NCBI GenBank assembly: GCA_963700285.1
Contig: CAVOXA010000006.1
Location: 128,001 to 192,000, forward strand
Direction: 5' to 3'
From: an uncultured Chloroflexia bacterium
GTDB taxonomy: Bacteria; Chloroflexota; Anaerolineae; JAAYZQ01
Length of the DNA stretch: 64,000 bases
Positions 27,068 through 63,671 of the stretch are shown here, in pieces. Position numbers and translations under genes: made by a program. The notes beneath the pieces were generated by a model that did not search any database, was not told where the DNA came from, and was given only the letters and a program-made list of their open reading frames with translations. The stretch's first letter is position 1. Every line of letters begins with the position of its first letter.

Positions 27068-28061
27068 CTAGGTTCGGGGCAGTCGCAGCCCCAGGTCCAG
27101 CGACAACGCCCGGCGGTAGATCTCGGGCAGGATGGCCGCATATTCGCCCCAGATGCCCAAGGCCAGGTAGACGATCACCTCTTCCGCCGACTCGCGGCCC
27201 GCCTTTCGCCCGGCAACGATGTCGGGCCACTGGGCATACACGTCCTCGGGGCCAAACAGCCCCAGTTCGTCGAGCATGCCCAATTCCGGTATGCGGGGCC
27301 GGACGTAGCGCCAGTTGTCCACGACGACCTTGTCCGCTTCCGTGAGCACCTCCAGGGCGATCTCCTGGTAGGAGCCCATGCGACCGACAAAGGCGCCGGG
27401 CTTGAGCCAATCCCGCTCAACCAGGGGCTGGTCGCCGGTGGTCACGGTAAAGACAATGTCCGAAGCGCGAACAGCCCGCTCGCGTTCCGCCAGCGGCACA
27501 GCAGTCACCGGAATGCCCACCTCCGGAGCCAGCTCCTCAGCATAGGCCACCGCGGCAGCGGGAAGGATGTCGATGATGTAGGCCTGGCGCAGATCAAAGC
27601 GGTGGCAAAGGGCGCGCAGATGCATCCGGCCCAGCGTTCCCAGCGCCAAAGATGGTGACCACCTCGGCCCCCGGCAGCGCCAGATAGGCCGCCGTCACCG
27701 CGCTGGAGGCGCCCGTCTTGAGGGCGGTCACATAGCCGCCCTCCATGATGCAGGCCGGCAGTCCGGTCTCCGCGTCAAAGAGTAGCACCATGGAGGAGGT
27801 GGTCAGGGTTCCAAAGCGTTCAGGGTTGCCAGGAAAGTAGCTAAAGGTCTTGACAAAGGCCAGTTCTTCGCCCTGCATATAGCCGGAAAAGGGCTTGACG
27901 AAACCGGCCGGGGCGACGTCCATATAGAATTTGTCCCCAGCCACCCGGCCCGCGGCGTCGGCGCGGATCCCGATCTCGGCCAGATCCACCGTTTCGGCCA
28001 TGGTGAGGGTCTGCTGCACGTCCGATTCCGTCAGATAGAGAATCGATTCTGGTACCGGCAT
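27068..28061 (-). CDS. Ornithine cyclodeaminase/mu-crystallin family protein (one frameshift near 27645)
   Basis: LFDAETGLP..YVTALKTGA, TIFGAG, DIVFTVT, WLKPGA and GRESAEE. Confidence 0.85.
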
Positions 28062-28185
28062 GTCGTCTCCTCTTACGCTGAAGACCTGACAGGGCAGATG
28101 TGAAACAGCCGTGTCCGATCGGCAGCATGGTGCATTTATGTCACCTTCGGGCAGCGCAATTCTCGCAACCCAGGCCAGAAACCCG

Positions 28186-29517
28186 TCAGATCTGCAAGCT
28201 GGCGTCCGCGATGTCCAGGGCGCCATCGATCACGGCCAAACCTTCGGCAATCTGATCAGCATCGATGCACAGGGGCGGCACGGCAAAGATCCAGTTCCAC
28301 TTGACAAAGGTGTAGAGCCCCTTTTCGCAAAGATAGCGCGCGACCTCGGGCATGGGGCCGAGCTCAGAGGACTTGGCGTTCCAGGGGGCCAGCGGTTCGC
28401 GCGTCTCCCGGTCCTTGACCAGCTCCAGGATCCAAAAGAGCCCGATGCCCCGCACATCGCCGACACTGGGATGCCGTGCCTTGAGGTCGGCCAGCCCCTC
28501 AGCCATCACCGCGCCCATCCGCCGCGCATTCTCCAGCAGATTGTCTTCCTGGTAGACCTGGAGCGCAGCAATGCCTGCCGCGCAGGACATGGGGTGGCCA
28601 CTGTAGGTCAGCCCACCCCAGAAGACCTGGTCCTCAAAGTACCGGGCGATCTTGTCCGAGACGATGACGGCCCCCAGCGGCAGATAGCCCGAGGTGATGC
28701 CCTTGGCCGTGGTGATGATGTCGGGCACGACGCCCCAGTTGTCAACGGCGAACCACTGGCCGGTCCGCCCAAAGCCGCTCATCACCTCGTCGGCGATGAG
28801 CAGGATGCCATAGCGGTCGCAGAGATCGCGCAGGCGAGGCCAATAGTCGTCGGGCGGCACGATGATGCCGTTGGTGCCGGTCACTCCCTCGGCCAGGATG
28901 GCGGCCACGTTCTCTGGTCCTTCAAACTGTACCACCTGCTCGATGTGGCTGATGCACTCGCGGGCGCAGGTCTCTGGCTCCTGGCCAAAGACGCAGCGGT
29001 AGCAGTGGGGGTCAAAGACACGCACGATGCCGGGGATGCCCGGTTCGATGGGCAGGCGGCGCGGGTCACCGCTGGCACTCATGGCCCCGTAGGTCGCGCC
29101 GTGGTAGGAGCGATAGCGGGTGATGATCTTGTTGCGGCCGGTAGCCAGGCGGGCGATCTTGATGGCGTTTTCTGTGGCCTCCGCCCCGCCCAGCGTGAAA
29201 AAGGTCTTGTTCAGGTCACCGGGCGCGATCTCGGCCAGCATCATGCCCAGCTCGCCCCGAGGTTGCGTGGCGAAGGACGGCGCCACGTAGGTCAGTTTGT
29301 CGGCCTGCGCCTTGATGGCTTCCACCACCCTGGCATTGCCGTGGCCGATGTTGACGTTCATCAACTGGGCCGAAAAGTCCAGGTAGCGCTTGCCATCGGC
29401 ATCCCAGAGATAGACGCCCTCCGCCCGGTCAATGGGAATGGGGTTCACCGCCCCCTGGCTCGCCCAGGCAAAAAACGTGTATTCCCGGTTCATACAAATA
29501 ATCTCTGCGTTGTCCAT
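28186..29517 (-). CDS. Class III aminotransferase (omega-amine, taurine/beta-alanine type)
   Basis: YLDFSAQL, GGAEATE, SYHG, IADEVMSGFGRTG and TTAKG. Confidence 0.9.
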   Translation of the reverse strand: MDNAEIICMNREYTFFAWASQGAVNPIPIDRAEGVYLWDADGKRYLDFSAQLMNVNIGHGNARVVEAIKAQADKLTYVAPSFATQPRGELGMMLAEIAPGDLNKTFFTLGGAEATENAIKIARLATGRNKIITRYRSYHGATYGAMSASGDPRRLPIEPGIPGIVRVFDPHCYRCVFGQEPETCARECISHIEQVVQFEGPENVAAILAEGVTGTNGIIVPPDDYWPRLRDLCDRYGILLIADEVMSGFGRTGQWFAVDNWGVVPDIITTAKGITSGYLPLGAVIVSDKIARYFEDQVFWGGLTYSGHPMSCAAGIAALQVYQEDNLLENARRMGAVMAEGLADLKARHPSVGDVRGIGLFWILELVKDRETREPLAPWNAKSSELGPMPEVARYLCEKGLYTFVKWNWIFAVPPLCIDADQIAEGLAVIDGALDIADASLQI

Positions 29518-29683
29518 TTGTAGCTCTCTTCTAACTCAGTAAGATCCTCCCGCGGGTTGCGTGCATTCGGCTTGGCACAAAATTGTGCGGGATCTGCCCA
29601 TAGCCACGCAGTTTCCACGGCAAACCCGCGGGAGGATCGCTCCTTCATTTGTCAAGACCACTTGCTGCCGCCTGCCAGCCAGG

Positions 29684-30859
29684 TCACACTTTCCTGGTCA
29701 CCGAGACCTGGGTCGCGATGCCTCGCGCCTCCAGCTCGGCAAAGAAGGCATTGGGGTCTACGGACATCTCCGGCGGGAAGACGCCAGGGCCTGGTACGCG
29801 GCCGGCTGCCAGCCATTGGGCCACGATGGACGGACCCACGCCCGTAGGCAGCGAGCCAACCGGCGTCAGCGTGCCCAGCCGGTAGGTCACCTCTTGCCCA
29901 TCCTTTGTACCGGCTATCTCTGTGACGATTTCTTTGGTCCACCGAGTAGGATCCACAGCTTCCTGCAGGAAAGCATCCAGCGGCGGAACATAGTCGGCCA
30001 TGAGTTCCACCAGCAGCTCGCGCGGGTAGACCGGCGCACCCCGCAGTTGGACGGGTTCCGAACTGGCAAAACCCAGATCGGCCAGCAGCCGGACCTTGGC
30101 AAAGGCATCGGGGCTCATGCCCCAGTAGTTGATCTTGAAAAAGCACTCGCGCAGCCCCTTGTCAGCAAAAGAAATCGGCAGGGTGGCCACTTCCGAATGC
30201 AGCGAGAGGTGGCAGCGGAGCAGGCCAACCGGAGGCGTAAACCAGTAGTCCTCTTCGCCGGAGAGGGGCTCCTCCTCTACAAATTCGCCGCCGCGAAAGA
30301 CCATGGGCGGCATGATCAGCTCGTCGATGATGGTCGGGATGGCATAACCAAAGCGAATATCATCGCCCGGCGGAGGCAGGATACCATCGTAGATGCGGAT
30401 AGAATCCACCGTATCCAGGCGGTCGGCGGCATAGCGGGAGTGGACGTTGGGCACGCCCGGCGCGCTGCCCATGCCCAGCACCGCCGTCAGCCCCGCCGCA
30501 GCAAAGTCGTCGTGCAAGGCCAACTGCTTGCGGGTGTTGAAAAAGAGGCCGCCCATGTCCGTATAGTGCGTCCCGGCCTCCAGGCACGCTTGCATCACCT
30601 CCAGGTTGAAATAGTAGTGCACGGCGTTGAGCACGGCGTCCGCGCCACGCAGCACCGCGACCAGTCCATCCCGGTCAGTTACGTCAACTTCCTTGACCGA
30701 CACTTTGCCCCGTCCCACGGGCAGCAACGCCACCACCTTGTTTGCCAGCCCGGTATCGCGGTCGGCGATGATCACCTGCTCGACGCCATCACTGGCGGCC
30801 AGGTCCTTGACGGCGATGCGTCCCATCAGGCCCGCACCACCCAGCACGACGATCTTCAT
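29684..30859 (-). CDS. Saccharopine dehydrogenase family protein (lysine 6-dehydrogenase / carboxyspermidine dehydrogenase-like)
   Basis: LGGAGLMG, HYTDMGG, GMGSAPG, HSEVATLP and PGVFPPE. Confidence 0.85.
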   Translation of the reverse strand: MKIVVLGGAGLMGRIAVKDLAASDGVEQVIIADRDTGLANKVVALLPVGRGKVSVKEVDVTDRDGLVAVLRGADAVLNAVHYYFNLEVMQACLEAGTHYTDMGGLFFNTRKQLALHDDFAAAGLTAVLGMGSAPGVPNVHSRYAADRLDTVDSIRIYDGILPPPGDDIRFGYAIPTIIDELIMPPMVFRGGEFVEEEPLSGEEDYWFTPPVGLLRCHLSLHSEVATLPISFADKGLRECFFKINYWGMSPDAFAKVRLLADLGFASSEPVQLRGAPVYPRELLVELMADYVPPLDAFLQEAVDPTRWTKEIVTEIAGTKDGQEVTYRLGTLTPVGSLPTGVGPSIVAQWLAAGRVPGPGVFPPEMSVDPNAFFAELEARGIATQVSVTRKV

Positions 30860-30897
30860 GAGTTGTTTCCTCCTTGTCTCATCTGTCTAGTGCTATT

Positions 30898-31809
30898 TCA
30901 CATCACTTTGTCCTGCAACACACCCCACACCTCATAGATCACCTTCAGCGCCGCAAACGAGGTGGCGTCCGATTGATCCAGGGGTGGCGATATCTCTACG
31001 ACGTCCATGGCCCGCACCGGCAGCTCCTGGGTGACGATGCGCATCAGCTCCAGCAGATCCCTCGTGCTGGGGCCGCCGCCTTCAGGGGTGCCGGTTCCGG
31101 GCGCGTAGGCTGGATCCAGACCATCGATGTCCAGCGTCACATAGACAGCCGGAACACCCCGCAGCCGCGCCACTACCTCTTTGGCAATGGCTTCGATGCC
31201 CCGGAGGTAGCACTGGCGGGCGGTATGGTAGGTCATGCCCGGGTACGCGGCCATCGACTCGCGGTCCTCCGGGCAGAAGCAGCGCACCCCGACAAAGACC
31301 ATGCGCCAGGGATCTGACCCGGCAAGTTCCAAGGCTCGCCGCTCCGAACAAGCGTGGGACCAAGGATTCCCATCATAAGTATCCCACAGGTCAAAGTGAG
31401 CGTCAAAATGCAGGATGCCAAAGGGTCCATCGACAACCCGGTCAAAGGCCCGCATCAGCGGGATGGTCACCGAGTGATCCCCGCCCAGGAACAGGGCAAG
31501 GGGGTGCTGCAGCGCCTCCACGGCTCGCTCTTCGACCATCGGCAGGTCCCGGGGCCAGGCCAGGTCGGACGGCACGTCGCCATAGTCCCGCACCCGTACC
31601 CGCAGTGGTTCTCCTTCTTCGGCGCTGGGCGCGAGCTGCAGCGTCAATTCGCGCAGCTTTGCAGGAGCTTGAGCCGCGCCAAGACGGTGCTGGGCTGCCC
31701 CATCGAATGGGATGCCCAGCACGCCGACCTCAGCGCCCGGATCCTCGCTGGCCAGCCCGCTCCACACGTCGTGGTGGTCATGAGCGACTGGTGCAGTCGC
31801 CTCTGTCAT
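30898..31809 (-). CDS. speB: Agmatinase (ureohydrolase family)
   Basis: GGDHS, HFDAHFD and LDIDGLDPAYAPGTGTP. Confidence 0.85.
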   Translation of the reverse strand: MTEATAPVAHDHHDVWSGLASEDPGAEVGVLGIPFDGAAQHRLGAAQAPAKLRELTLQLAPSAEEGEPLRVRVRDYGDVPSDLAWPRDLPMVEERAVEALQHPLALFLGGDHSVTIPLMRAFDRVVDGPFGILHFDAHFDLWDTYDGNPWSHACSERRALELAGSDPWRMVFVGVRCFCPEDRESMAAYPGMTYHTARQCYLRGIEAIAKEVVARLRGVPAVYVTLDIDGLDPAYAPGTGTPEGGGPSTRDLLELMRIVTQELPVRAMDVVEISPPLDQSDATSFAALKVIYEVWGVLQDKVM

Positions 31810-33317: not shown

Positions 33318-34629
33318 CTAGCCCTTGGCTTCCTTGACCGATTCCTCAAAGTAGGTCAATGTGTCGGCCACATCCTGTTCCGACAGCGCGGCGCACAGGA
33401 ACCAGGGCTCCTCACCGTCGGGCTCAGGCATCGCTCCCCGGACCACCATTCCGGCGACGACTTTATCGTACAGCTCGGAGTCGACGCGCTGCCAGGAACG
33501 AAAGTCGATCGGCTCTTCCTCGCCGAAGGAGATGCCAAACATCGCTGGGACGCCCAGCATACTGTGGGGGATGTCCTGGTCGGTCAGGATGCCGTGGATG
33601 CCCGTCATCAGCGCCTCGCCCCGGGCCTTGACCGTATCCAGTACCCCTACCTCGGCAATGATCTCCAGGGTGGCGTCAGCCGCGGCGGTGCCCACGACGT
33701 TGCCGCAGTAGGTGCCGCCGTGCGCGGTGCGGCCCGGCCCGACGCTGGCCATGACCTCCTTCTTGCCGCCAATGGCGGCGATGGGGTAGCCGTTGCCCAT
33801 GGCCTTGGCGTAGGTGGACCAGGTCGCCCTGGATGCCAAACAACTCCTGCGCGCCGCCGGGCGCGACCCGGAAGCCGGTCTTGACTTCGTCGATGATCAT
33901 GACGATGCCATACTCGTCGCAGAGCTCGCGGATCAGCTCCAGCCAGCCCGGCTGGGGCATGATGCCGCCCAGGTTGCCCATGATCGGCTCGACGATGATG
34001 GCCGCCACGTCGCCCCACGCCTGCCTGACCGTGCGCTCCAGCGTCTCAAGGTCGTTGTAGGGCAGCGAGATCACCAGCTCCTGGATGACCCTGGGAATGC
34101 CTGAGGTCATTGTCACCGGGATCGGGCTGCGGCTGTTGCCCATGGCCGAGACCGGCGAGGAGGCGGTGGAAAAGAGCATATAGTCGTACATGCCGTGGTA
34201 CTGGCCCTCGAATTTGATGATCTTTTCCCGGCCCGTGTGGCTACGGGCGATGCGCAGGGCGTGCATGGTCGCCTCGGTGCCCGAGTTGGCATAGCGTACC
34301 ATGTCCACGCCGGGGCACATGGCCACGATCCGCTCGGCGACCTTGACCTCCAGCTCGTGCGTGAGGGCAAAGACCGTGCCGCTGTTGATCGCCTCGGCCA
34401 CACGCTCGACGACGGTCGGGTGGCCGTGCCCCAGGATGACCGGACCATAGCCCAGCCGGTAGTCGATGTAGCGGTTGCCGTCGAAATCCCAGATGTAGGT
34501 CCCCTGGGCACGGGCCACCCCGATATTCTTCCCTTCGCCATAGTAGCGAAAGTTCGAGGTTACGCCAAAGGGCATCACCTTTTCGGCGCGCTTTTGAAAA
34601 GCATTGTTCTTTTCCATACTGTACGTCAT
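33318..34629 (-). CDS. Class III aminotransferase, glutamate-1-semialdehyde aminomutase-like (one frameshift near 33815)
   Basis: NSGTEATM, FEGQYHG, IIDEVKTGFR and YAKAMGNGYPI. Confidence 0.85.
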
Positions 34630-34731: not shown

Positions 34732-35595
34732 TCACGGAATGTCAACATCTGAGACCGGCCTGACAAGGCGCCCGTAGGTGTCGGGTCGCCTGCGCCGGTA
34801 AAACCCGAATGTACTCCGCCAGCGATGCAAGAGGTCCGCATCGAGGTCAGCCACAATGACTTCGGTCTGGTCCCGGCTGGCTTGAGCCAGGATCTTGCCC
34901 ATGGGATTGCAGATGAAACTGCTGCCATAAAACGTCACGGCCTCCTCGCCAGTTCGGTTGGCGGCCGCGACGTAGACCTGGCTGGTGACGGCCTGCCCGC
35001 ACATGGCTGTCCGCCAGGCTTCCATCGAGTCCATCTCTGGCTGGCCCGGCTCGGAACCGATGGCCGTGGGATAGAAAATAAACTCGGCGCCGTTCAGGGC
35101 GCAGATCCTCGACACCTCGGGGAACCATTGGTCGTAGCAGGTGGGCGCCGAGAGCTTGACCTTGCCCAGGTCGTGGACCGGGTACTCGCCGGCCCCAGAA
35201 AAGTAGTAGGTTTCACGGTATCCCTCGCCGTCTGGGATATGCACCTTGCGGCTGGAACCCGCCAGCGCCCCCCGGGAATCATGGAGTGTGGCCGTGTCGT
35301 AATAGCAGCCATCCGCCGCTTTCTCAAAGATGCTGCCCACCAGCCACAGCTCGTGGTCCCTGGCCAGCGCACCCAGGAACCTGTCCGATGGCCCACCGCG
35401 CAGGGGTTCCGCCCAGGTAAAGCCCGCGTCATCCATGGCGCTGGCAAAATAGGGCGAGAGGGTGAATTCTTGGAGGCAAACCAGCTCAGCGCCGCGGCCG
35501 GCCGCCTGGCCCACCAGGTCGCGATAGGTATCCATCATCGCCGTCCGGTCACCCGGCCAGTGCGTCTGCGCGACGGCAACCCGTATGGTCTCCAC
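34732..35595 (-). CDS. Carbon-nitrogen hydrolase (N-carbamoylputrescine amidase / ureidopropionase-like)
   Basis: E-K-C triad: CLQEF, RKVHIP and CYDQWFPE; YPTAIGSEP. Confidence 0.88.
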   Translation of the reverse strand: METIRVAVAQTHWPGDRTAMMDTYRDLVGQAAGRGAELVCLQEFTLSPYFASAMDDAGFTWAEPLRGGPSDRFLGALARDHELWLVGSIFEKAADGCYYDTATLHDSRGALAGSSRKVHIPDGEGYRETYYFSGAGEYPVHDLGKVKLSAPTCYDQWFPEVSRICALNGAEFIFYPTAIGSEPGQPEMDSMEAWRTAMCGQAVTSQVYVAAANRTGEEAVTFYGSSFICNPMGKILAQASRDQTEVIVADLDADLLHRWRSTFGFYRRRRPDTYGRLVRPVSDVDIP

Positions 35596-35685: not shown

Positions 35686-36264
35686 CTAGGCCCCGGCCGC
35701 CAGCTTCCGGCCAAGCTCGTAGGCCTTGGCCATCAGATCCCTGTTTTCCGCAACCGCGCCTTCGCCGGAGGCGTAGCCGTAGACCATGCCCACGATCTCT
35801 GCCGGGATATAGTTGAAGGTGTCCTGGAACATGCGTATGGCATTGATGGCCCCCGAATCAAAAGGATCGTCGCCGCCGTAGGTCAGAATCACGCCGACCT
35901 TCTTGCCCGCCAGGCCATGCTCTTTGACCGTATCCCCTCCCAACGCGTAGCAGCGATCCATGAAGGCCTTGAGCTGGGCCGTGATCGTGAACCAGTAGAT
36001 GGGGCTGGCATAGACGATGCCGTCGGCGTCACGGATGATGGGATAGAGGAGCTGCATGTCATCCTCGATGACACATCGAGCATCCGACGATCCGCGGCAG
36101 ACTTCGCAGGCGTCACAGGGCCTGATGTCCATCCCATGCAGGTAGTAGCTCTCGACCTGCGCGCCGGCTGACTCGGCGCCCGCGGCTACCTGGCCGGCCA
36201 GCATCGCGCTGTTGCCAATCTCTCTGGGACTCCCCTTCACGATCAAGACTTTGGGTTTTGACAT
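35686..36264 (-). CDS. Iron-sulfur flavoprotein / NADPH-dependent FMN reductase family
   Basis: GSPR..GNS, PCDACEVC......RC and ASPIYW..QLKAFMDR. Confidence 0.85.
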   Translation of the reverse strand: MSKPKVLIVKGSPREIGNSAMLAGQVAAGAESAGAQVESYYLHGMDIRPCDACEVCRGSSDARCVIEDDMQLLYPIIRDADGIVYASPIYWFTITAQLKAFMDRCYALGGDTVKEHGLAGKKVGVILTYGGDDPFDSGAINAIRMFQDTFNYIPAEIVGMVYGYASGEGAVAENRDLMAKAYELGRKLAAGA

Positions 36265-36468: not shown

Positions 36469-37794
36469 TTAGGTACTGGCGGCCCCGGCCTCTCTGGCCG
36501 CGAGCCGATGCCTGGGTTCTTCCAGGGTCAGCGACAGCGCAATAGACACCAGTCCTGCCGCCAGGGCCACGAGGAACAGCGCCACAAAACCCAGGTTGTC
36601 CACGATGGCCGCTCCGACAGGCGACATGAAAAAGACCATGCCCAACACGCCATGGGCCACCCCGATGTACAGGACGCGCTCGATGGACGCCGTCTGCTCC
36701 AGCAAGTAGTTGGTCCCACCGATGACCCGGGCGCTGACCTGTATCCCCTGCAGGATAAAGACCAGGCCAAAGGCCATGGGCCTGGCCGGACCCAGGCCGG
36801 GAGCAAAGGCCACCAACAGGGCCGCGGCCGGTGTCAGCATGGCCGTCAGGGCGGCCAGGCGCATGACAAGCCGGTTGCCATGGCGGTCGCTGATCCGGGC
36901 AAAGACCAGGTTCGACAGCACGCCGGCCAGCGTCATGCCCAGCAGGTAGGTGCCGACCATGTTCTCTGGCGCATCCAGCACCCGCCGGGCATAGACCGCA
37001 TAGAAGGGCAGGGCCAGCGCCGCCACGACGATGGCCACCCGCGTTCCCAGATAGCGGCCAAAATTGCCGTCCCGGAAAGGGAGCTTGACCGCACGCCGGA
37101 CCTGCTCCCTGAGCGCGACCCCCCGGGTATCCACTGCCTCCGCCGGCTCGACAACCAGGCCAAAGGAGATGACCTGCATGGTCGTGACCGCGGTCCCCAG
37201 GACGATGAGCCAGCCATAGTTGTCAGGGAAGCTCAGTCCCGAGTCCGCAGACAGGATGGCCCTGACCACAAAGCCAGCCCCAATCCCAAACAGGCCACCG
37301 GCGAAGCGGCGCCAGCCAAAATACTGGCCTCGCCGCCCAGGCGGTATCGTCTTGGCCACGATGTTCATAAAAGGCAGGGCCGCAACGCCGCCCATCAGGG
37401 CATTGATGCTAAAGAACAACAGAAAGGCTACGATCAGCACGCGTGGATCGGTGATGGTGAAAGCCGATACGGCCAGCAGGCCAAGGGCCACGACCCGGAT
37501 CCCCCCTGTGATCCGGTAGAGCGGCATGGTGAGCGGCTTGCGTTCCACATAGCCCGACAGCAAAAGCTGCAAAAAGTACCAGCTCCCCATCTCAATGGGT
37601 ATCAGCAAGCTGATGAGCAGGTTCGAGTCGGTCAGCTCGGTCAAGAACCAGGTCATCACCAACTCGGTGCTGAGAAAGACGACGTAGAGGTTGTAGCCAA
37701 TGCCGCTGACGACGCCCAGCCAAAAGTTGCGCTGCAGATGCTCCGTAACCGCTGGTACGCCCAGCGGCCTCACCGGCTGCGTAGAGACTTTCAT
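36469..37794 (-). CDS. MFS transporter
   Basis: About 12 TM segments; IPPGRRGQYFG and RISDRHGNR. Confidence 0.8.
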   Translation of the reverse strand: MKVSTQPVRPLGVPAVTEHLQRNFWLGVVSGIGYNLYVVFLSTELVMTWFLTELTDSNLLISLLIPIEMGSWYFLQLLLSGYVERKPLTMPLYRITGGIRVVALGLLAVSAFTITDPRVLIVAFLLFFSINALMGGVAALPFMNIVAKTIPPGRRGQYFGWRRFAGGLFGIGAGFVVRAILSADSGLSFPDNYGWLIVLGTAVTTMQVISFGLVVEPAEAVDTRGVALREQVRRAVKLPFRDGNFGRYLGTRVAIVVAALALPFYAVYARRVLDAPENMVGTYLLGMTLAGVLSNLVFARISDRHGNRLVMRLAALTAMLTPAAALLVAFAPGLGPARPMAFGLVFILQGIQVSARVIGGTNYLLEQTASIERVLYIGVAHGVLGMVFFMSPVGAAIVDNLGFVALFLVALAAGLVSIALSLTLEEPRHRLAAREAGAAST

Positions 37795-37832
37795 GTTACG
37801 CCCCCGGCCCTGAGGACCTGGCCCCGGCCAGA

Positions 37833-51639: not shown

Positions 51640-51732
51640 GCGTCCTCTTGTTCACAAATTGCCAGGTCGCGGACCTGGCTCGAGCGGCGAAAGGTTAAGG
51701 TTGAGTTGCAGGTCCTGGCCCTTCCCTAGGCC

Positions 51733-53195: not shown

Positions 53196-53280
53196 GGGTA
53201 TTCTTCCCTTTCCGGTATCAGGCATTGGAGGCAACGAACCGTTCGGTCCGTTGAAAACCTCCGAGGTCTTGTTCTAATGC

Positions 53281-54243: not shown

Positions 54244-55281
54244 CTAACTGTAGCGGACCCGCGGGTCCAAGAGCCCGTAGGCAATGTCGGCCAACAGGTT
54301 GGCCGAGACGGTGAAAACGGAGGCAATGATCAGAATAGCCATCAACAAGGGATAGTCCCGCCCCGTCGCGGCCTGGTAGTAGAGGCGGCCCATCCCCGGC
54401 CAGGAGAACATCAGTTCGACGTACAGCGAGCCGGCAAAGATATAGGGGATGTCCAGGGCAAAGATGGTCACCAAGGGGATCAGGGCATTCTTGAGCGCGT
54501 GCCTGAACATCACCGCCCTTTCCGAAAAGCCCTTGGCCCGCGCCGTGCGGATATAGTCCTGGTGGATCACGTCCAGCATGCCGGCTCGCAAGAAGCGCGA
54601 ATACCAGGCTACCCAGCCCACGGCGCCCATCGTCACGGGCAGGATCAGGTACTTGAGCCGGTCCCGGATGGAAAAGCCAGCCCCCAGCGTTTTCATGCCC
54701 CCGGCGGGCAGCAGCGGTTCGCCGGTGACAGGGTTGTTGAGCAGGGAATAGAAAACGATGATCAGGATCATGCCCAGCCAGAATTCGGGGATCGCTTGGC
54801 CCATGAAAGACAGGGTGGTTACGGTGATGTCAAATAGGGAGTACTGTTTGACGGCGGAGAGGACGCCGATAGGGATGGCAATGATAAAAACGATGACCAG
54901 GGTGATGCTCATCAAGTAGACGGTGTTGCCCAGGCGGTCCAGGATCTCGTCTAGCACCGGCTTGCGCGTCTTGTAGGAGAAGCCAAAATCACCCCGCAGG
55001 ATGCCCTTGCGCTCGCCGCGGCTCTCGGTGATCCCATCGCCATCGGCGTCGATCTTCATCCAGTCGTTGCCGATGAGCCAGACCACGTACTGGACGGGAA
55101 GGGATTGGTCCAGGCCAAGCTGGCGCCTGAGTCTCTCGCGCACCTGAGGCCTGGGACGCTGCCCGCTCATTGCCGCCACCGGATCTCCCGGGGCAACGCT
55201 GACCAACACGAACAGCCCCACACTCAGCAGCAGCAACATTGGAATGGCTTGAAGCAAGCGTCTAGCTATGTAGCGGCCCAC
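54244..55281 (-). CDS. Peptide/Ni-type ABC permease, OppB/DppB-like
   Basis: APGDP, GLDQSL, DYIRTARAKG, HALKNA and LLDPRV. Confidence 0.9.
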   Translation of the reverse strand: MGRYIARRLLQAIPMLLLLSVGLFVLVSVAPGDPVAAMSGQRPRPQVRERLRRQLGLDQSLPVQYVVWLIGNDWMKIDADGDGITESRGERKGILRGDFGFSYKTRKPVLDEILDRLGNTVYLMSITLVIVFIIAIPIGVLSAVKQYSLFDITVTTLSFMGQAIPEFWLGMILIIVFYSLLNNPVTGEPLLPAGGMKTLGAGFSIRDRLKYLILPVTMGAVGWVAWYSRFLRAGMLDVIHQDYIRTARAKGFSERAVMFRHALKNALIPLVTIFALDIPYIFAGSLYVELMFSWPGMGRLYYQAATGRDYPLLMAILIIASVFTVSANLLADIAYGLLDPRVRYS

Positions 55282-55572
55282 GTTGCCCACCCTCCTCGAA
55301 AACCTTCAGTGCAGCAGGCATTCTCACCAGTCCTTGCCTCCCTCGCTCGAGATCGTGCGAAAGAGCTCGTGCTGGACCCGATCCCCGCACTTTGGGGACA
55401 CAGCCCAGCACCTGCGCGCACAGACCGGCGGACTGTGGTCCGCCTGGAGCTGTTTGGCAAGTTTTGACACAGTCTTGCTCCTGGCAGTTCCGACCCAACA
55501 GACGCCGGCCCCTTCCAGGTATCGTACCATCTCCGACGACCGGTTTCGGAAAATCTGTCAGGTCTGGTCTTG

Positions 55573-57000
55573 TCACAACGACGGGCGCCAGGTCGGATCG
55601 CCGAACCAGGGACGGACGCGCTCCAACGCCGCGGCCACCCGGAACACACGCTCATCGTCATAGGTGGGTCCCACGATCTGCACCCCGGTCGGCAGCCCAC
55701 CACTGGCCAGCCCCGAGGGCACGGCCAGCACCGGACAGCGGCTGGCTATGTTAAAGGGAATGGTCAGAATCGTATCAAAGTAGTCATCCAGCACCACACC
55801 GTCGACCATGACCTTGGTCTCCACATAGTCGTCACCGGCCAGCAGCGCCGGGATTCCCGCTGTCGGGCAGATCAGGGCGTCGTAGCGTTCCAGGATCTGA
55901 CCCAGCTCGGCATAAAGCCGGCCCTCGATCTCCAGGCCCTCCAGGAAGCTGATCTCGCGACTGGCCGCCTCAGCGCCGTCGATAAAGGCCCGGGTATAGG
56001 GCATGAGCAGATCCGTGTGTTCACCCGAGCTGTCCCCACTCGCGGCCGCAAAGATGGCGCCATAGTGGGCCCAGCTCGCCCGGGAGATGTCCGCGCGCTT
56101 CCAGGAAAACTCGACCTCCTCGACCACGGCGCCCGCCTCGCAAAGCGCCTCGGCTGCGGCCCGGGTATTGGACTCGACCTCCGCCCCAATGGCATAGTCG
56201 CCCAGGTGGATGGACAGCGCTATCTTGCTCCCGTCAATGCCACCCAGCTCCTGCGGGATCCGCACCGCCGGGCGCAGCGAGACCACGTCCAGGGGATGAG
56301 GCCCTGCGATCACATTCTGCAGCAGTGCGCAGTCGGCTACCGTTCGAGCCAGCGGCCCGTCGTGGCAATAGTGGTCCAGGTTAAAGGGCGGCAGGGCCGG
56401 CACCCGGCCGTAGGGCGGCTTGAAACCCACCACCCCACTGAAGGATGCCGGGATGCGGATCGAGCCGCCGATGTCCGAGCCGGTGGCCAGGACCGCCGTT
56501 CCGGCCGCCAGTGCGGCCCCCGAGCCCCCCGAAGACCCTCCGGGAGAGTATTCCAGGTTCCACGGATTGCGGGTCACGCCCCACAGCCTGGTGTGGGTAA
56601 AGCCGGCGCAGCAGAACTCGGGCGTGGTCGTGCGGGCATGGACGATGCCGCCAGCAGCGACGATCCGTTCGACGATGGGGTGCGTGATTTCGGCCACGTT
56701 GTCCTTGTACAGCAGCGAGCCCTCAGTCGCGGTATGCCCGGCGATGGGATGTTCCTCCTTGATCGCGACGGGCAGGCCTTCCAGCGCCCGGGGAGGCGCG
56801 CCGCTCCCGGCATAGCGGGCCTCCGCGGCGCGGGCCTGCTCCAGCGCCTCATCGAACAGCCGCTCGGCGAAGGCATTGATCTTGGGCTCGACAGCTTCGG
56901 CCCGCTCAATCACCGCTACCATCAGCTCGACGGGCGACAACTGGCGCGCGCGAAACAGCCGCAGTAGTTCCGTCGCCGGTAGATAGATCAAATCCTGCAT
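55573..57000 (-). CDS. Amidase-signature family amidase
   Basis: GLPVAIKE, SPGGSSGGS and GSDIGGSIRIPAS. Confidence 0.9.
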   Translation of the reverse strand: MQDLIYLPATELLRLFRARQLSPVELMVAVIERAEAVEPKINAFAERLFDEALEQARAAEARYAGSGAPPRALEGLPVAIKEEHPIAGHTATEGSLLYKDNVAEITHPIVERIVAAGGIVHARTTTPEFCCAGFTHTRLWGVTRNPWNLEYSPGGSSGGSGAALAAGTAVLATGSDIGGSIRIPASFSGVVGFKPPYGRVPALPPFNLDHYCHDGPLARTVADCALLQNVIAGPHPLDVVSLRPAVRIPQELGGIDGSKIALSIHLGDYAIGAEVESNTRAAAEALCEAGAVVEEVEFSWKRADISRASWAHYGAIFAAASGDSSGEHTDLLMPYTRAFIDGAEAASREISFLEGLEIEGRLYAELGQILERYDALICPTAGIPALLAGDDYVETKVMVDGVVLDDYFDTILTIPFNIASRCPVLAVPSGLASGGLPTGVQIVGPTYDDERVFRVAAALERVRPWFGDPTWRPSL

Positions 57001-57175
57001 GAGCATCCTCCTCGGGCCGCCAGGCTCACGGGCCCGATTCCTTTTCCGCAGGCCGCAGGATCCTCGCGGCTTCGGCTTTCTGTTGAACCTCCGGTGGCAG
57101 GACAGACTTCCAAAGCCAGGGACGAACCTCAGGTTCACGACTTTGGAAGTCTGGTTGCCGGCGATTCACAGGCGG

Positions 57176-58969
57176 TTATTCTGCGATCTCCCAGTCCGCG
57201 ATGTTCCAGGTGATCATATCATTGGCATTGTCGACAATGCCCTTGATCCGCGGGTTATAGCCCGCAGCTTCGATGGAGACAAACAGCGGGATATTGGACA
57301 GGTCTTTATCCAGGATCTCGGCGATCTGGCAAAAGACCTCTTTCCGGTACTCTTCGTCCAGCGTATAGGTCTCGTCCAGCAAGGCATCAAAGTCCTCGTT
57401 CGACCAGCGGGTTACGTTCCAGCCCATGTCTGGTTCCATGGCGTCGGTGTGGTAGTAGACCCACAGGAAATCGGTGAGCTGGTTGCCGGCGTAGCCGTCG
57501 TCCCACAGGTCAAGGTCAAAGTTACCGTTCTGCTCGATACCCCCGTCGTCGTAGGTGCCCCATAGCTGGCTGCCCTCGACCATGCCCAGCTCGGTGCCCA
57601 TGCCGAGATCATTCAGATCCTCGGCGATGAGCTGGTGGGCCAGCTCCAGCGTCTCACCCCATTCCGAGTAGACCAGGAACTCGGTCACCATCTCATAGCC
57701 CTCGGGCGCGCCGGTGGTGCAGCCGTGGCACTCACGAATGCCGTCCCCGTCGGTGTCGGTCCAGCCGGCCTCCTCCAGCAGCGCCTTGGCGCCTTCGAGG
57801 TCGTATTCCGGCTTGGGGACGTCGCACGTATAGGGCTCGCGGTAGAACTCGGTCCACTGCACGGTCATCATACCTGTGTCGCCCCAGACCCCCGCCAGGA
57901 TCTCGTCGGCGTTGACGGCCATGCGCATGGCCTGGCGGACGCGCAGGTCACTAAAGATGGGGTGCGGATCGGCCTCCGCATCGATAGAGCCCCTGGCCGC
58001 CAGGTTGGGCCACATACGCACCAGCCAGCGGCCAAACTCGGCCCTACTGACCTCCACGGCATCCGTCTCGTTGTAGGCGTTCATAACGGTCTCTATGATC
58101 CAGAAATCCACGTCGCCATCGCCGCCCAACATCATCTCCTGGCGGACCGTCGCCTCGGGTACAATCTGGACAAAGACCTTGTCGATGCTGGGTTTGCCTT
58201 CTTCATAGTAGTTGGGATTGCGGACAAAGGTCAGGTGATCGCCAGAGTCCCACTCTTCGAGAAGGTAGGGACCACTGCTCAGCGGATCCCGGTTGCAGTC
58301 CCACGAGCCGATGCCCCCATCCCCGGTGCAATAGTGCTCGGGCCAGATGGCGCCATAGAATCCGCCGAGCTGCTCCAGGTAATCGGGGTAAACGCCGTTA
58401 TAGTGGACCACAAAGGTATAGTCGTCTATCTTTTCAATACTGTCCGTATAGTCCATACCCGGCACCCACATGCCGGTCTCGGGATCGGCGAGGGCGTCCC
58501 AGGTAAAGATCACGTCGTCGGCCGTAACCGGCTCGCCATCCGACCAAAAGACGTCGTCCCGCATCGTCCAGGTGACGTCCATAGTCCACGCATCCTCGTC
58601 GATGACCACACCACCGTTTTCGATGGTGGGCAGCTCTGCGGCCAACTCGGGAAAGATCTCGCTGTTCGGGCCGATGTCAGCCATGGCCAGCAGGGTCATC
58701 TCGGCCACGAGGTTCTCGTAGCCGGTATCGGTCAAAAAGTGGTTAAAGCTGGGCGGATCCTCCATGGAGAGGATGACGACGCTCGTTTCCTCAGCTTCAG
58801 ACTCCTCAGGCTCGGGCGCCATGGTCGGTTCAGCCTCAGCCGCCATGGTCGGCTCGGCCTGGGCAGGCGGCGCCGGCTCCTGGGTGGCCCCACAACTCAG
58901 CAAGCCGGCCACAAGGACCGCGCACACCAATGCCAGCGCCAACAGCTTGATCGTTCGCTTTTCCATCAT
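57176..58969 (-). CDS. Family 5 ABC substrate-binding lipoprotein
   Basis: Lipobox LLSC, WSDGEPVTADDVIFTW, SGPY and LLEEAGWTDTDGDG. Confidence 0.9.
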   Translation of the reverse strand: MMEKRTIKLLALALVCAVLVAGLLSCGATQEPAPPAQAEPTMAAEAEPTMAPEPEESEAEETSVVILSMEDPPSFNHFLTDTGYENLVAEMTLLAMADIGPNSEIFPELAAELPTIENGGVVIDEDAWTMDVTWTMRDDVFWSDGEPVTADDVIFTWDALADPETGMWVPGMDYTDSIEKIDDYTFVVHYNGVYPDYLEQLGGFYGAIWPEHYCTGDGGIGSWDCNRDPLSSGPYLLEEWDSGDHLTFVRNPNYYEEGKPSIDKVFVQIVPEATVRQEMMLGGDGDVDFWIIETVMNAYNETDAVEVSRAEFGRWLVRMWPNLAARGSIDAEADPHPIFSDLRVRQAMRMAVNADEILAGVWGDTGMMTVQWTEFYREPYTCDVPKPEYDLEGAKALLEEAGWTDTDGDGIRECHGCTTGAPEGYEMVTEFLVYSEWGETLELAHQLIAEDLNDLGMGTELGMVEGSQLWGTYDDGGIEQNGNFDLDLWDDGYAGNQLTDFLWVYYHTDAMEPDMGWNVTRWSNEDFDALLDETYTLDEEYRKEVFCQIAEILDKDLSNIPLFVSIEAAGYNPRIKGIVDNANDMITWNIADWEIAE

Positions 58970-59088: not shown

Positions 59089-59733
59089 CTAAAGGCTGGC
59101 CAACCTCTTGGCCTCGGCCACCGCTGAGATGGCGTCCTCCGCATAACCATCGGCCCCAATCTGTTCGGCCCAGGTTTCGGTCACCGGTGCGCCGCCGATC
59201 AAAACCTTGACCTGGTCGCGCAGGCCAGCTTCTTCCAGCGCATCGATGATCTTTTGCTGCTGCAGCATGGTCGTCGTCAGCAGCGCCGAAGCGCCGATCA
59301 GGGTCGCGCCCGCCTCTCTTACCGCGTCGATGAACTCGGCCGCCGTCTTGTCCACGCCGATATCGGTGACCTGAAACCCGTTGGCCGTGAGCATGGTGCC
59401 CACCAACGTCTTGCCGATCTCGTGCAGGTCGCCCTCCACCGTGCCCAGCACCACCCGGCCCAGGATCTCGCGCTCCTGGCCAGCGGCCAGGGCCGGCTCC
59501 AGGATGGTCAGCGCCGCCTTCATGGCATCACCGCCCATGATCAGGTCGGGCAAAAAGTACTCGCCCGTGGCGAAAAGCTCGCCCACGCGGTCAATGCCCG
59601 GGCTGAGCCCCTCGTTGATGCAGGCCAGGGGATCGAGGCCCTGCTCCAGCGCTTCCCTGGCCGCCTCCTCCGCGTCCTCAGGCTCGCCATCGACTACTGC
59701 CTGTGCCAACCTGCCATAGATCTCCTCCGACAT
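59089..59733 (-). CDS. Corrinoid (B12-binding) protein, MttC/MtbC-like
   Basis: GEYFLPDL, GTVEGDLHEIGK (DxHxxG), SALLTTTM, IGGAPV and IGADGY. Confidence 0.92.
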   Translation of the reverse strand: MSEEIYGRLAQAVVDGEPEDAEEAAREALEQGLDPLACINEGLSPGIDRVGELFATGEYFLPDLIMGGDAMKAALTILEPALAAGQEREILGRVVLGTVEGDLHEIGKTLVGTMLTANGFQVTDIGVDKTAAEFIDAVREAGATLIGASALLTTTMLQQQKIIDALEEAGLRDQVKVLIGGAPVTETWAEQIGADGYAEDAISAVAEAKRLASL

Positions 59734-59935: not shown

Positions 59936-61389
59936 CTATCCAAACTGTACCTCAGCCGCAGCTATGATGGCCTGCAACTCAGCCCGCTGCGCAGCCTCCA
60001 ACGGCTCAGGTTCGTGCTCGGCCAGTATCCGGCCAAGCTCCATTCTCGCTCGCTGCCGGATCTCGGGCAGGCGGCTGCCGTCCAGCGGCGGCCGCGGATG
60101 TGAAAGCTCGGGGATCCAGATATCCCGCAGGTGCTGCCGGCTGTGCTCCTGGGCCAGGTAGTGACCCCTGGGTCCCACGGCTGCGATGACGTCCAGGGCC
60201 AGCGCATCTGCCCTCGTGTCCAGACCCTCGGCCAGGATCCGGTTGATGTGGTAGATCTCGTCGTCATAGATGATCTGCTCTGGGGCCAGCAGTGTTGAAG
60301 CCGCGCAGCATGCCGCCGCCGGTAGCGATATCGGCGCCGGCCAGCGGCACCATCAGGGCCGTATAGACGTGATCGCGGCCCATGCGCCACGTGTCCGGGT
60401 TGGTCGCCGTCCATGCCAAAGGCCCCGGCCAGGATGGGCACACCCCAGTCATGGGCGATCTGGACCGCCGCCGCGTTGCACAGGAACTTTTCGGGGATAC
60501 TGACGATATAGTCGGCGGTACGGGGATCCATCACCGAGCCCAGCAGGGAATAGAAAACGCTGGCCCCGGGTGCCACCAACTGCATCAGCACCAGAGCGCT
60601 GACCACCTCGGCGCTGCCCACGACCAACGCCCCACCGGGCGCGGCCGGCGCGGTGGCCCCCATGTTGGGCATGGCCATAAAGCCCACGGGAATGCCCGCC
60701 TCGGCGTAGACCATGCCGGCCTCGATGCCCTCCGGGTCCTGGCCCAGCGGCGCGATGGTACAGATCAGCACCGACATGGGCGGATTGGCCCTCATCCTCT
60801 CCCGATCTCCGGCGATCACCTCCGCCATGCGGACCGCGTACCGGGCCGGCTCGCCGCCCATCACCGTCTCTGTCTGCACGTGCTTGACGGTATTGTTAAA
60901 GCTGGCGTCCAGCTCGTGCAATGGGGCCAGGCGGCCATAGTCCTGGGCGCTGACCATCGGCCAGTAGAAAGAGACGGAGGACAAATAGTCGGCCACCCGC
61001 GCCATCATGGCCACGTCCTCCTTGCACGACCGCCGCTCCTCGTCCCGTGTCTGAAATCGAGGGTCCGCGTCCCGCAGCCATCGGTGCCAAAGTAGGTGGC
61101 CGTCCCGTCGAGCAGCAGGCCGGTCCCAGCCGATCTGCCCGGCGAGGGTGTAGGTGCGCGGGGCGTGGCTCATGGCCTCGACGACCAGGTCCGGCGTCAA
61201 GCGCACAACCTCGGTCTCCCAGTCCACCCGGGCGCCGTGCTCGGCAAAGACGCTCAGTGCACGCTGCGATGGAAAGTGTACGCCCACGTGCTCCAGCACG
61301 TGCAGCGTGGCGGCCTTGATCTCGCTCACCTGCCCCGCGCTCAATACCTCACAACGGCGGTTGGGCCGGATGGGCTTGATGTCTGGCAT
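59936..61389 (-). CDS. MttB-superfamily methyltransferase 7 (frameshifted)
   Basis: TLHVLEHVGV, KHVQTET, GATAPAAPGG and GPRGHYL. Confidence 0.82.
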
Positions 61390-61454
61390 ATTCTTCCTCC
61401 CCTCATCCAGACGTCCGAAGTTTCGGAAAACTTTGGAAGTCAACCCCAGTGTGT

Positions 61455-62898
61455 CTAGAGCGGCTCAAAGTGGAACTCGGGTCCCAGGTAGCGGCGCACG
61501 ATGCGCTCCAGCTCGGCCTCGACGCCAGCAGGCAGCGGCGGCGGGCTGTGCTGGGCCAGCAGGTCCTGGGCCCGTTCGCCGGCAGACATCCTCGATGGTC
61601 TCACCTCTGGCCAGCCAGGCGTCATAGGCTTCGCGGTTGAGGATATCTGGCAGCCAGTGCTGGCGAAAGGTGCGGCGCGTGTGTTTGGTCCGAAGAAAGT
61701 CACCGCGTGGCGTGTTGGCCTTGATCAGCGCCACCTCCTCATCCACGTCCGTGCAGCGGTGATGCCCTCCATCATGCGCCGCAGCCCGGCGATAAACTCA
61801 TTGTCCAGTACCATCTGCGTGTACGAGATGGACGCCCCGGCGTCGGTCGTGCCCACGCCATAGATGATGTCCGCACCCTCCAGCAGCAGGGGCACGGCCG
61901 TGACCGCCTTCTCAAAACCAGCCTGGGCGTCCAGCTCCTTGGCGTCGGAGGAGAGCCCGCCGCACATGGATGGCATGCCATAATAGCGCCCCATCAGCGC
62001 CGCACCGGCGTTGATCATGCCTCGTCTCCGGCGCGCCGAGCGGCAGCATCCCGGTGCGCATGTCCAGTACCGCCGAAACGCTGCCATAGAGCAGGGGCAG
62101 CCCCGGATACAGGATCTGGAGGACGACGATCCAGGCCAGGATGTCGGCGTTGATGACGACCAGCTCGCCCAGGAGCGTGGCCGGGGCCGAGGCGCCGCCC
62201 ATGGCCATGCTCAGCAGGGTGATGGGCACGCCGTGGGCCGGCCCAGCGCATCATGCAGCGCACGTTCTCTGGGGTAAAGTAGCCAGGGCTGATGGGGCAG
62301 TAGAGCGGTGGCAAAGTTGGGACGGGCACGAAAGGCGTCCTCGCCACCGGCCACGGCGGCCAGCATCTCAAAGGCAGCGTCCACCCGGTCGGGCGACAGG
62401 GTGCGGTGGACCACCGGCTTGCCGGTGCCGCGCAGCAGTTCTGCGATCTCGACCAGGTCGGAGCATTCCCCCTGGTCGGTGGCGGTGACGGTCGGCCGGA
62501 CAATGTCCACCTGGGGCAACGCATCCTGCAGGCGTCACCAGGTCGCGGACGTCCTGCCGGGTGGCCGGCCGCCGCCGGCCCGTCTCCAGATCAAGGACGT
62601 TGACCGGGGTCCCGGCGCCCATAAAGCTGGGCCTCTCATAGAAGGTCGCCGGTGTACCGCCTGCCCGGTCATACAGGCGCATGCGGCGCGGGAGGGTTCG
62701 CAGCGCTTCCCACACCAGTTCCGGGCTGGCGCGCACCATCTGCGCGTCCCAATCGACCTGGAAACCCGCTGCCTCCAGGCGGGCCAGGGCCTCGGCCTCG
62801 GGCACGCAAAAGCCCACTTCAGCCAAGATCTCCACAGTCTTGACGTGGATCCGTTCTGCAACTGATTCAGAAAGATAGCGTCCGGGCATCGTTTCCAT
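61455..62898 (-). CDS. MttB-superfamily methyltransferase 8 (frameshifted), closest to the canonical MttB motif
   Basis: IHVKTVEIL, GASAPATLLG and GRYYGMPSMCGGLSSDAKELDAQAGFEK. Confidence 0.82.
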
Positions 62899-62963
62899 CC
62901 TTGATGGTCCAGTCCTTGCCGGCTCCTGCACGGACCTTCGACCCCAGGCCTTCAGTTCAGAAC

Positions 62964-63489
62964 CTATCGGGCTCGCCCTGCACTCGCTGGCACAGCCTCT
63001 GCCGTCACAGGCTCAAGGGGCGCTGGCCTGGGCGCTTCCGCCTCGCCCCAGCGGTACGACAGCTTGTACATCTTTAGGATCATAAAGGTCTCGGTCCGCT
63101 CCACGCCGGGGACCCGCTGCAATCTGTCGCTGAGAAAGGTAACAAAATGATCCCTGTCGCGGCAATAGACCTCGACAAACAGGTCAAAACCGCCGGAGGC
63201 CATGAACAGGTAGGTGACTTCGGGGAACTGGGCAATGGCATCAGCCGCGGCCTGCAACCTGCCCGGCCTGGACCGTGACCCCGATCATGCCCGCCGAATT
63301 CCATTCCAGAAGCTGGGGCTCCACCACACCGACGATCTGGAGCACTCCCGCGTCGGTCATACGCTTGACGCGGCGGCGTACCGCGCCTTCCGTGAGGCCC
63401 AACTCGGCCGCGATCTCGGTATAGGGCATCCGCCCATCGTACTGCAGGTGGCCGACAATGGCCCGGTCGGTGTCATCCAGTTGCTTCAT
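62964..63489 (-). CDS. Lrp/AsnC-family transcriptional regulator (one frameshift)
   Basis: LDDTDRAIV..LQYDGRMPYTEIA..LGLTEGAVRRRV; C-terminal GGFDLFV..GVERTET. Confidence 0.9.
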
Positions 63490-63642
63490 CCGTACCCGCC
63501 TCCAGTCTTGCCTGGGGCACAGCCAATTCGGAAACATGACGCGTTCAGGAACAAAGCGTGTTCAGGAACATGGCGTGTTAGGAACACTGGCGTTGACAAT
63601 CCTGACATGTCCAAGAACACCGCGTGGTGTAGATTGCACGGC

Positions 63643-63671
63643 ATTATATACGAATTTCGTAGGAATGTCAA
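63643..63671 (-). promoter_or_regulatory. Sigma70 promoter heading the MttB cluster, with a palindrome in the spacer
   Basis: TTGACA, 17 bp, TATAAT on the minus strand; TACGAA-T-TTCGTA at 63649-63661. Confidence 0.8.

Follow-up and report, generated by a model that had tools for sequence, protein, structure and literature searches.

Among the described corrinoid-dependent methyltransferases of the MttB superfamily, those that lack pyrrolysine (Pyl) include MtgB, which works with MtgC and MtgA in Desulfitobacterium hafniense, and MtpB, MtcB, MtyB and MthB, which work with MtqC/MtqA or MthC/MthA in Eubacterium limosum (PMC12155760, PMC6855144). These systems combine an MttB methyltransferase, a cognate corrinoid protein, a tetrahydrofolate (THF) methyltransferase and a corrinoid activator, with the Wood-Ljungdahl pathway as the methyl sink. 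The same parts are present for a cluster of 29 genes that we describe here from a 64-kb stretch of DNA (hereafter the window, whose coordinates are used throughout) of an uncultured Chloroflexia bacterium (genome G000; its sister genome is G001, and L-numbers denote related loci or contigs). However, this cluster carries eight MttB paralogues (M1 to M8, in order of transcription) per one corrinoid gene, the THF methyltransferase is usually encoded in trans, and the MttB genes are embedded among genes for amidino-, acyl- and backbone-degrading enzymes.

From sequence comparisons, we favor with a probability of roughly 0.55 the interpretation that the cluster would serve the anaerobic removal of methyl groups from N-methylated polyamines and agmatines, by way of MttB enzymes and a shared corrinoid protein, followed by oxidation of the backbone. 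Put most broadly, N-methylated, N-amidino and N-acyl polyamines would be taken up and then stripped. An earlier note on this DNA had reported 29 co-oriented genes behind a consensus promoter and an Lrp gene, with eight MttB paralogues, one corrinoid protein and a list of hydrolases, aminotransferases, dehydrogenases and transporters. All of this held up, with Lrp counted among the 29, as the genes form a single minus-strand run from 63489 to 27068 with intergenic gaps of -4 to 282 bp (Table 1, in order of transcription), each enzyme family was found by Pfam, and the promoter agrees with the consensus at every position. Long plus-strand open reading frames that overlap cluster genes gave no Pfam match, and terminator scans gave no signal beyond that of shuffled sequence. 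An Lrp gene also stands at the head of many related clusters.

The neighborhood of the agmatine deiminase-like gene aguA is conserved. A search with one genome per species was evaluated for its best 80 of 308 related stretches, 26 of which (one being the G001 stretch, L008) carry the AguA subtype of the window at 57-90% identity. MttB genes are present in 26/26 of these loci and in 0/54 of the other AguA loci, 45 of which span at least 8 kb. This co-localization is far beyond chance, among carriers that are kin (Anaerolineae, Anaerolineales, Chloroflexia or Chloroflexota genomes). G000 itself probably belongs close to Anaerolineae. The interleaved order that had been pointed out earlier, M4-aguA-M5-aguB, is real, and order is conserved elsewhere: M3, M4 or M5 precedes aguA in 23/23 loci where no contig end intervenes, M6/7 comes after aguB in 21/24 loci, and a second paralogue, AguA2, follows in 10/26.

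Because an AguA anchor alone would be circular, M8 was used as a second anchor in metagenomes, where the best 80 of 283 matches were considered. Among 25 contigs with at least 4 kb upstream of M8, M6/7 occurs in 18, aguB in 7 and aguA in 5; among 26 with at least 4 kb downstream, the saccharopine dehydrogenase-family gene SDH1 occurs in 18, the aminotransferase genes AT1 and AT2 in 10 and 9, SDH2 in 7 and the ureohydrolase gene in 5. In 400 genomes of the class, M8 is found in 15 and SDH1 in 58; 12 of the 15 M8 genomes carry both, eight of them on one contig, versus 46 of the remaining 385 genomes with SDH1. The AguA subtype was not found among 400 genomes sampled evenly across the phylum, where the best match has 43% identity. 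On these M8-anchored and genome counts, the system is uncommon, recurrent and modular, with M6/7-M8-SDH1 as its core and AguA/AguB as a frequent add-on. Recurrent co-localization, whose absence the earlier note had named as an outcome that would refute its proposal, is confirmed; AguA and AguB form an optional module around this core.

Such modularity could also mean a loose island for amine scavenging, in which an ordinary polyamine module merely shares a regulator with MttB enzymes for unrelated substrates (other quaternary amines, sulfonium or O-methyl compounds). The SDH1 backbone module without M8 in 46/385 genomes, the widely varying gene content and the abundance of MttB genes in G000 (about 42 loci) fit this idea. 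However, it does not explain why the AguA subtype is always accompanied by MttB, why the genes are interleaved in a fixed order, or why a small second copy in both G000 and G001 again joins M5, M6/7, SDH1 and an aminotransferase, and we find it rather improbable.

All eight MttB loci exceed the PF06253 cut-off of 25. In the phylogeny for which the earlier note had called, built from 134 near-full-length MttB proteins, each cluster position forms its own orthologous group; M2, M3, M5 and M6/7 together form a single radiation (support 1.0), and M6 and M7, which are 67% identical, are a local duplication. In a second tree, with 124 library representatives added and locus sequences subsampled to five loci, M2-M8 fall in one clade of 84 proteins (support 0.995) and M1 lies outside. 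An Asp at position 107 of M5, with adjoining aromatic residues, dominates the M2-M8 clade.

MtgB is described as binding betaine via Y97, F356, R312 and H348, with R312L abolishing activity and with R312 conserved in MtcB, MtpB, MthB and MtyB, all of which have acidic substrates (PMC13080624). M5 is only distantly related to MtgB (143 bits), and these positions, mapped through an M5-MtgB alignment, are not kept in the cluster. Position 312 is Leu in M2, M5, M6/7 and most M3 proteins, Asn in M4, Glu in most M8 proteins and Met in M1; the His at 348 is absent from the cluster proteins (Gly, Ser, Thr, Val, Ile or Tyr instead); position 97 is Thr, Cys, Glu or Gln; and 356 is mostly a small residue, with an aromatic pair at strand 2 instead. 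Since the substrate-binding signature fails, the cluster proteins should not be filed as betaine demethylases. The earlier note had named enzymes active only on known substrates, such as glycine betaine or trimethylamine (TMA), as the outcome that would speak against its proposal; the active sites lack the glycine-betaine and acidic-betaine signature, so that on this count, too, the proposal was not refuted.

Nor are they Pyl-dependent TMA methyltransferases, as judged from their sequences. The Methanosarcina Pyl MttB belongs to the same fold family and is the best solved relative of M5 (154 bits), but no amber codon occurs at the Pyl position of the eight genes (M4 breaks there, and its intact orthologues have none), the N-terminal PylS protein was not found in G000, which is 89% complete, and scores against TIGR02369, the only NCBIfam match of these proteins, are 289-394 versus a cut-off of 525. 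These same observations might favor the notion that mono- and dimethylamine, freed from methylated polyamines or guanidines by the hydrolases and dehydrogenases, are demethylated by MttB enzymes without Pyl, particularly as an Asp and aromatic pocket could hold methylammonium. However, seven orthologous groups with differing pockets exceed what three small amines need, and MtgB did not use TMA, dimethylamine or monomethylamine (PMC13080624), which makes this alternative very unlikely.

The pockets themselves suggest larger cations. A model of M8 (pLDDT 92.5) has alternating strands and helices, in keeping with a TIM barrel, and places D95, E97, Y133, W134, D166, Y272 and E312 at the C-terminal ends of predicted barrel strands. 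This pocket is strongly acidic and aromatic in the model, has no basic residue, and would suit a di- or polycation. The pocket of M1 is basic (R146, H176 and R177 in M5 numbering) and, by alignment, would suit an acidic substrate.

In AguA, the four catalytic residues (Asp, His, Asp and Cys) are conserved, both in the window protein and in full-length orthologues. The protein nonetheless forms a separate subfamily, with Leu or Met in place of the Gly normally found ahead of the catalytic His and with an inserted loop, and it falls below the TIGR03380 equivalog cut-off (243 vs 381.8). The Lys and Cys motifs of AguB orthologues do not differ from those that AguA-linked amidases have in unrelated loci and organisms, and intact copies score 310 and 297 versus 410 for TIGR03381. 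Compared with the known AguA/AguB and SpeB agmatine route, after which they had been named, AguA and AguB keep the catalytic residues and motifs but miss the equivalog cut-offs. The ureohydrolase just passes TIGR01230 (174.6 vs 174.3) with its metal motifs kept, and its best solved relatives are guanidinopropionase and guanidinobutyrase, closer than agmatinase. An intact AT1 orthologue exceeds the cut-off for GntE (570 vs 525, NF041362), an enzyme that acts on a guanidine-bearing aldehyde or amine.

SDH1 and SDH2 have CASDH/CAPADH (8DEB) as their closest solved relatives, though distant ones (83 bits). SDH1 matches CAPADH at E 2e-22 and PH1688, an entry that we take to be a lysine dehydrogenase, at E 9e-5; an Atlas search was uninformative for SDH1. 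For CASDH/CAPADH, H228 is given as the base, and the amine is said to be bound by E107, which lies in an acidic loop (PMC13683441). The catalytic His occurs in 67/67 SDH1 and 20/20 SDH2 matches, and the E107-type acidic polyamine-recognition loop occurs in SDH1 alone. However, Glu229 is replaced by Pro, Asp or Ser, and scores against NF043000 are 39-44 versus a cut-off of 800.

AguA, AguB, the ureohydrolase and CASDH/CAPADH are also enzymes of known spermidine synthesis (PMC13683441), and so the cluster could in principle build polyamines, with the MttB enzymes reversed to methylate from methyl-corrinoid. This we consider hardly probable at all: the partner carboxyspermidine decarboxylase (TIGR01047) was not found in G000, itself 89% complete, no decarboxylase occurs among the annotated neighbors, and the presence of importers, aminotransferases and aldehyde oxidoreductases speaks for catabolism.

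The most telling result for polyamines is the context of SDH1 in the absence of MttB. From the 46 genomes with SDH1 and no M8 match, 13 loci were fetched, picked for long contigs. PotA and PotB are encoded in eight of the 13 and a PotD-like gene lies at the edge of a ninth, AT1 is present in 12, and many add SDH2, an aldehyde ferredoxin oxidoreductase (AFOR) and an aminobutyraldehyde-dehydrogenase-like gene; in two, a corrinoid gene or part of M1 is still present. PotA passes TIGR01187, and the match of the binding protein to PotD/PotF, which bind putrescine and spermidine, has E 1e-65. Loci L183-L186 and L189-L193 hold an SDH1-AT1-SDH2-AFOR-aldehyde dehydrogenase-PotABCD module without M8 that resembles a self-standing pathway for anaerobic polyamine catabolism. 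Putrescine is otherwise broken down by the PatA/PatD, Puu and Spu/Pau routes. Like these, the loci related to the cluster have class III aminotransferases, aminobutyraldehyde-dehydrogenase-like and DAO-family genes and PotABCD, but no glutamylation genes were seen in them; AFOR and CASDH-like enzymes take their place, and corrinoid demethylases are attached.

The main rival would have the cluster act on methyl-lysines and methylarginines from protein turnover, imported as peptides. The MttB enzymes would remove methyl groups from methylarginines and from lysines that carry one, two or three of them, SDH1 would be a lysine 6-dehydrogenase, AguA and AguB would be an arginine deiminase and a citrullinase, and the OCD-family protein would handle pipecolate or ornithine. 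It accounts for the peptide-type solute-binding protein SBP5, the JGI name lysine 6-dehydrogenase on many SDH1 homologues, peptidase-family genes (S15, M20, M24, M28) in some related clusters, an amino-acid permease gene adjoining M8 in 11 contigs, an Arg at strand 3 of M4 and M5 that could bind a carboxylate, and the Leu or Met before the AguA His, which we presume resembles ADI/DDAH. We nonetheless judge it unlikely, as SDH1 is far closer to CAPADH than to PH1688, its MttB-free context is PotABCD, AguA keeps an acidic residue before the His loop, the AguB motifs are those of a canonical N-carbamoylputrescine amidase, and M8 has no basic pocket residue. Of the substrates that the earlier note had proposed (N-methylated polyamines, guanidines and lysine or arginine derivatives), this evidence narrows the choice toward polyamines and agmatine, with the lysine and arginine derivatives less favored.

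Three of those points, the JGI label, the SBP5 type and the 11 contigs in which a permease context replaces the usual one, also weigh directly against N-methylated polyamines as substrates, and there are others. The best solved match of SBP5 (E 6e-25) is no close relative, its PDB and Atlas labels are generic peptide-binding ones, and G000 is without a close PotD orthologue. Position 312 is other than Arg in nearly all other MttB proteins of G000, so that its loss is not cluster-specific, and the pocket positions rest on alignment and predicted strands. AguA lies upstream of M8 in only 5/25 contigs, and the carriers are related Chloroflexota, for which counts such as 26/26 describe conservation and not independent events. 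Finally, to our knowledge, the known non-Pyl MttB enzymes act on quaternary amines, and the N-methyl polyamines found in nature are mostly secondary or tertiary amines.

If the cluster nevertheless acts on methylated polyamines and agmatines, then Lrp would control uptake via the Dpp-type ABC and MFS transporters. Amidino groups would be removed by AguA with AguB and by the ureohydrolase, and acyl groups by the amidase and amidohydrolase, as judged at the family level. Each MttB orthologue would bind another methylated amine, with M2-M8 holding a cationic, non-acidic substrate on the Asp and aromatic pair and M1 perhaps accepting an N-methyl amino acid that arises later in the pathway. The methyl group would pass to Co(I) of the corrinoid protein, then to THF via an MtqA-like enzyme, and then to the Wood-Ljungdahl pathway and acetyl-CoA synthase, whose genes lie in trans. 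SDH1 and SDH2 would run the CASDH reaction oxidatively to cleave or deaminate C-N bonds, aminotransferases and aldehyde oxidoreductases would complete backbone oxidation, and FixCX would pass flavoprotein electrons to quinone.

We tentatively raise a more specific possibility, that the active-site Asp of the M2-M8 clade replaces pyrrolysine and that polyamines are demethylated at protonated N-methyl amines, secondary and tertiary alike, coupled to oxidative CASDH-like cleavage, through to acetyl-CoA. Substrates may include N-methylputrescine, N-methylagmatine or algal long-chain polyamines. Methylated long-chain polyamines of silicifying algae are reported in sediments (PMC12206195); that these are a source of substrate is a guess.

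The genome (7.05 Mb) supplies the remaining parts. The corrinoid gene lies in the cluster, and candidates for the activator and the methyl-THF transferase are in trans: G000 holds acetyl-CoA synthase, RACo corrinoid activators and pterin-binding methyltransferases, all outside the cluster. Acetyl-CoA synthase is present in 5/5 cluster-bearing genomes tested. One related cluster, L158, contains an MtqA-like methyltransferase gene of which G000 has a 69% orthologue, and in another, L165, Fhs adjoins M8. G000 has 59 MTTB Pfam matches in the loci counted above, 11 of which form an array on contig C14, and MttB genes occur in 18/18 same-family genomes sampled. E. limosum likewise holds 42 non-Pyl MttB proteins (PMC12155760). 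Thus a high MttB count is by itself not unusual for this organism and eight in a row is typical of the lineage; the special feature is therefore the neighboring genes.

Frameshifts split nine of the 29 genes in the window (Lrp, M1-M4, DppC, CN1, AT1 and OCD). These are most likely assembly errors, because two of five housekeeping controls in G000 are also split (LysRS and TypA), G001 has DppC, CN1 and OCD intact but breaks in three other genes (those for DppB, FixC and the corrinoid protein), and at ten sites in M1-M4 the additional base is missing from contigs of related strains, which come from four public runs of two studies. On these same grounds a pseudogene reading was rejected for most genes. 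The break near 50700 in M4 (within 50640-50760) may be real, as both G000 and G001 have it at an identical site, the one that Pyl occupies in MttB.

Table 1. Features of the cluster, from the promoter onward in the direction of transcription (window coordinates).
Feature	Position	Strand	Basis
Sigma-70-type promoter, TTGACA-17-TATAAT	63643..63671	-	12/12 consensus positions
Lrp/AsnC regulator, one frameshift	62964..63489	-	Pfam HTH_AsnC-type and AsnC_trans_reg
MttB M1, separate lineage, four frameshifts	61465..62889	-	Pfam, tree, alignment
MttB M2, Asp clade, frameshifted	59939..61389	-	Pfam, tree
Cognate corrinoid protein	59089..59733	-	TIGR02370, 227.6 vs cut-off 215.3
Family 5 solute-binding protein (SBP5)	57176..58969	-	PF00496
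Amidase, signature family	55573..57006	-	PF01425
DppB-like permease	54244..55290	-	Pfam
DppC-like permease, one frameshift (G001 copy intact)	53281..54166	-	Pfam
MttB M3, Asp clade, several frameshifts, start approximate	51748..53240	-	Pfam, tree
MttB M4, Asp clade, break near 50700 common to G001, start approximate	50245..51680	-	Pfam, tree
AguA-like deiminase, distinct subfamily	49107..50189	-	PF04371; alignments
MttB M5, intact	47581..49041	-	Pfam
CN1, AguB-like N-carbamoyl amidase, one frameshift (G001 copy intact)	46620..47517	-	Pfam CN_hydrolase, motifs
Short-chain dehydrogenase (SDR)	45719..46543	-	Pfam
MttB M6, intact, duplicate pair with M7	44137..45588	-	Pfam, tree
MttB M7, intact	42585..44033	-	Pfam, tree
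MttB M8, intact	41141..42574	-	Pfam, model
FixC-like flavoprotein	39773..41137	-	Pfam; scores below FixC cut-off
FixX-like ferredoxin	39495..39770	-	Pfam
Amidohydro_3 metal-dependent amidohydrolase	37833..39377	-	Pfam
MFS transporter	36469..37836	-	Pfam
Flavodoxin-like FMN reductase	35686..36264	-	Pfam
CN2, second C-N hydrolase, AguB-like	34732..35595	-	Pfam CN_hydrolase, motifs
AT1, class III aminotransferase, GntE-like, one frameshift	33318..34629	-	Aminotran_3
SDH1, CASDH/CAPADH-like dehydrogenase, His215 and acidic recognition loop	31938..33077	-	Sacchrp_dh; alignments
Ureohydrolase, agmatinase/guanidino-acid hydrolase type	30898..31809	-	Pfam Arginase; TIGR01230
SDH2, saccharopine-dehydrogenase family, without acidic loop	29684..30859	-	Sacchrp_dh; alignment
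AT2, class III omega-aminotransferase	28186..29517	-	Aminotran_3; best solved relative taurine:2-oxoglutarate aminotransferase 6JIX
OCD/mu-crystallin-family imine reductase, one frameshift (G001 copy intact)	27068..28061	-	OCD_Mu_crystall

Other loci and neighboring sequences were noted in passing. Besides its 11 MttB genes, the C14 array (G000:C14:388994-430185) encodes two corrinoid proteins, an OCD-like protein, a class III aminotransferase and an Opp/Dpp transporter. Its MttB proteins mostly belong to another clade, with a His-Asp motif. Four MttB genes, two corrinoid genes, a RACo activator gene and an MtqA-like methyltransferase gene lie at G000:C1:297499-325888, likely a hub serving other MttB arrays. 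The small second copy (L206, G000:C10:1269743-1278887; L091 on G001:C9) consists of GntR, M5-like, aminotransferase, SDH1, M6/7-like and GcvT/DAO genes. Further genes of related clusters encode GcvT/DAO enzymes resembling dimethylglycine dehydrogenase, deacetylase-like proteins and C45, S15 and M20 hydrolases; 4-methylaminobutyrate oxidase, whose substrate arises by oxidation of N-methylputrescine, presumably belongs to the GcvT/DAO family, although no paper was found for it. The amidase gene was not seen in the Anaerolineae loci compared. Eleven contigs, L135, L139, L157 and L180 among them, have M8 next to an APC amino-acid permease gene, in some cases with an OYE-type flavin oxidoreductase gene, and without M6/7 or SDH1. 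L034 and L033 encode an AguA of 51-52% identity without MttB; in L034 it is accompanied by carbamoyltransferases, AT1, AFOR and a Pot-type transporter, a variant of the agmatine deiminase pathway. An element of ~90 bp between the amidase and DppB genes (55365-55454) matches several other places in G001 and is probably a dispersed repeat. Positions 1-27000 of the window encode an acyl-CoA ligase, a branched-chain amino-acid ABC transporter, a PAS kinase, response regulators, an ABC ATPase and a NapH-like ferredoxin, all unrelated genes, several of which likewise look frameshifted.

The pathway looks undescribed so far; its chemistry is itself known, and its substrate is proposed from sequence. 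A literature search that reached few subscription papers found none linking MttB with agmatine deiminase, none on an anaerobic corrinoid methyltransferase for trimethyllysine, and none on anaerobic spermidine degradation via saccharopine dehydrogenase; judged by titles and the opening of abstracts, no listed paper dealt with this cluster either. Thousands of non-Pyl MttB proteins are without an assigned substrate, and the few that have been characterized all act on acidic quaternary amines. The cluster ties seven MttB orthologous groups to one chemical family, with a short list of substrates. If our interpretation is correct, the substrates of cobalamin-dependent N-demethylation would come to include amines that are not acidic and perhaps not quaternary, methylated polyamines would have a named anaerobic sink, and proteins of the saccharopine dehydrogenase family would gain a catabolic role in polyamine metabolism, for which the same search found no precedent in print. 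Should the Asp indeed stand in for pyrrolysine, Anaerolineae-type bacteria would be able to convert methylated polyamines all the way to acetyl-CoA without oxygen.

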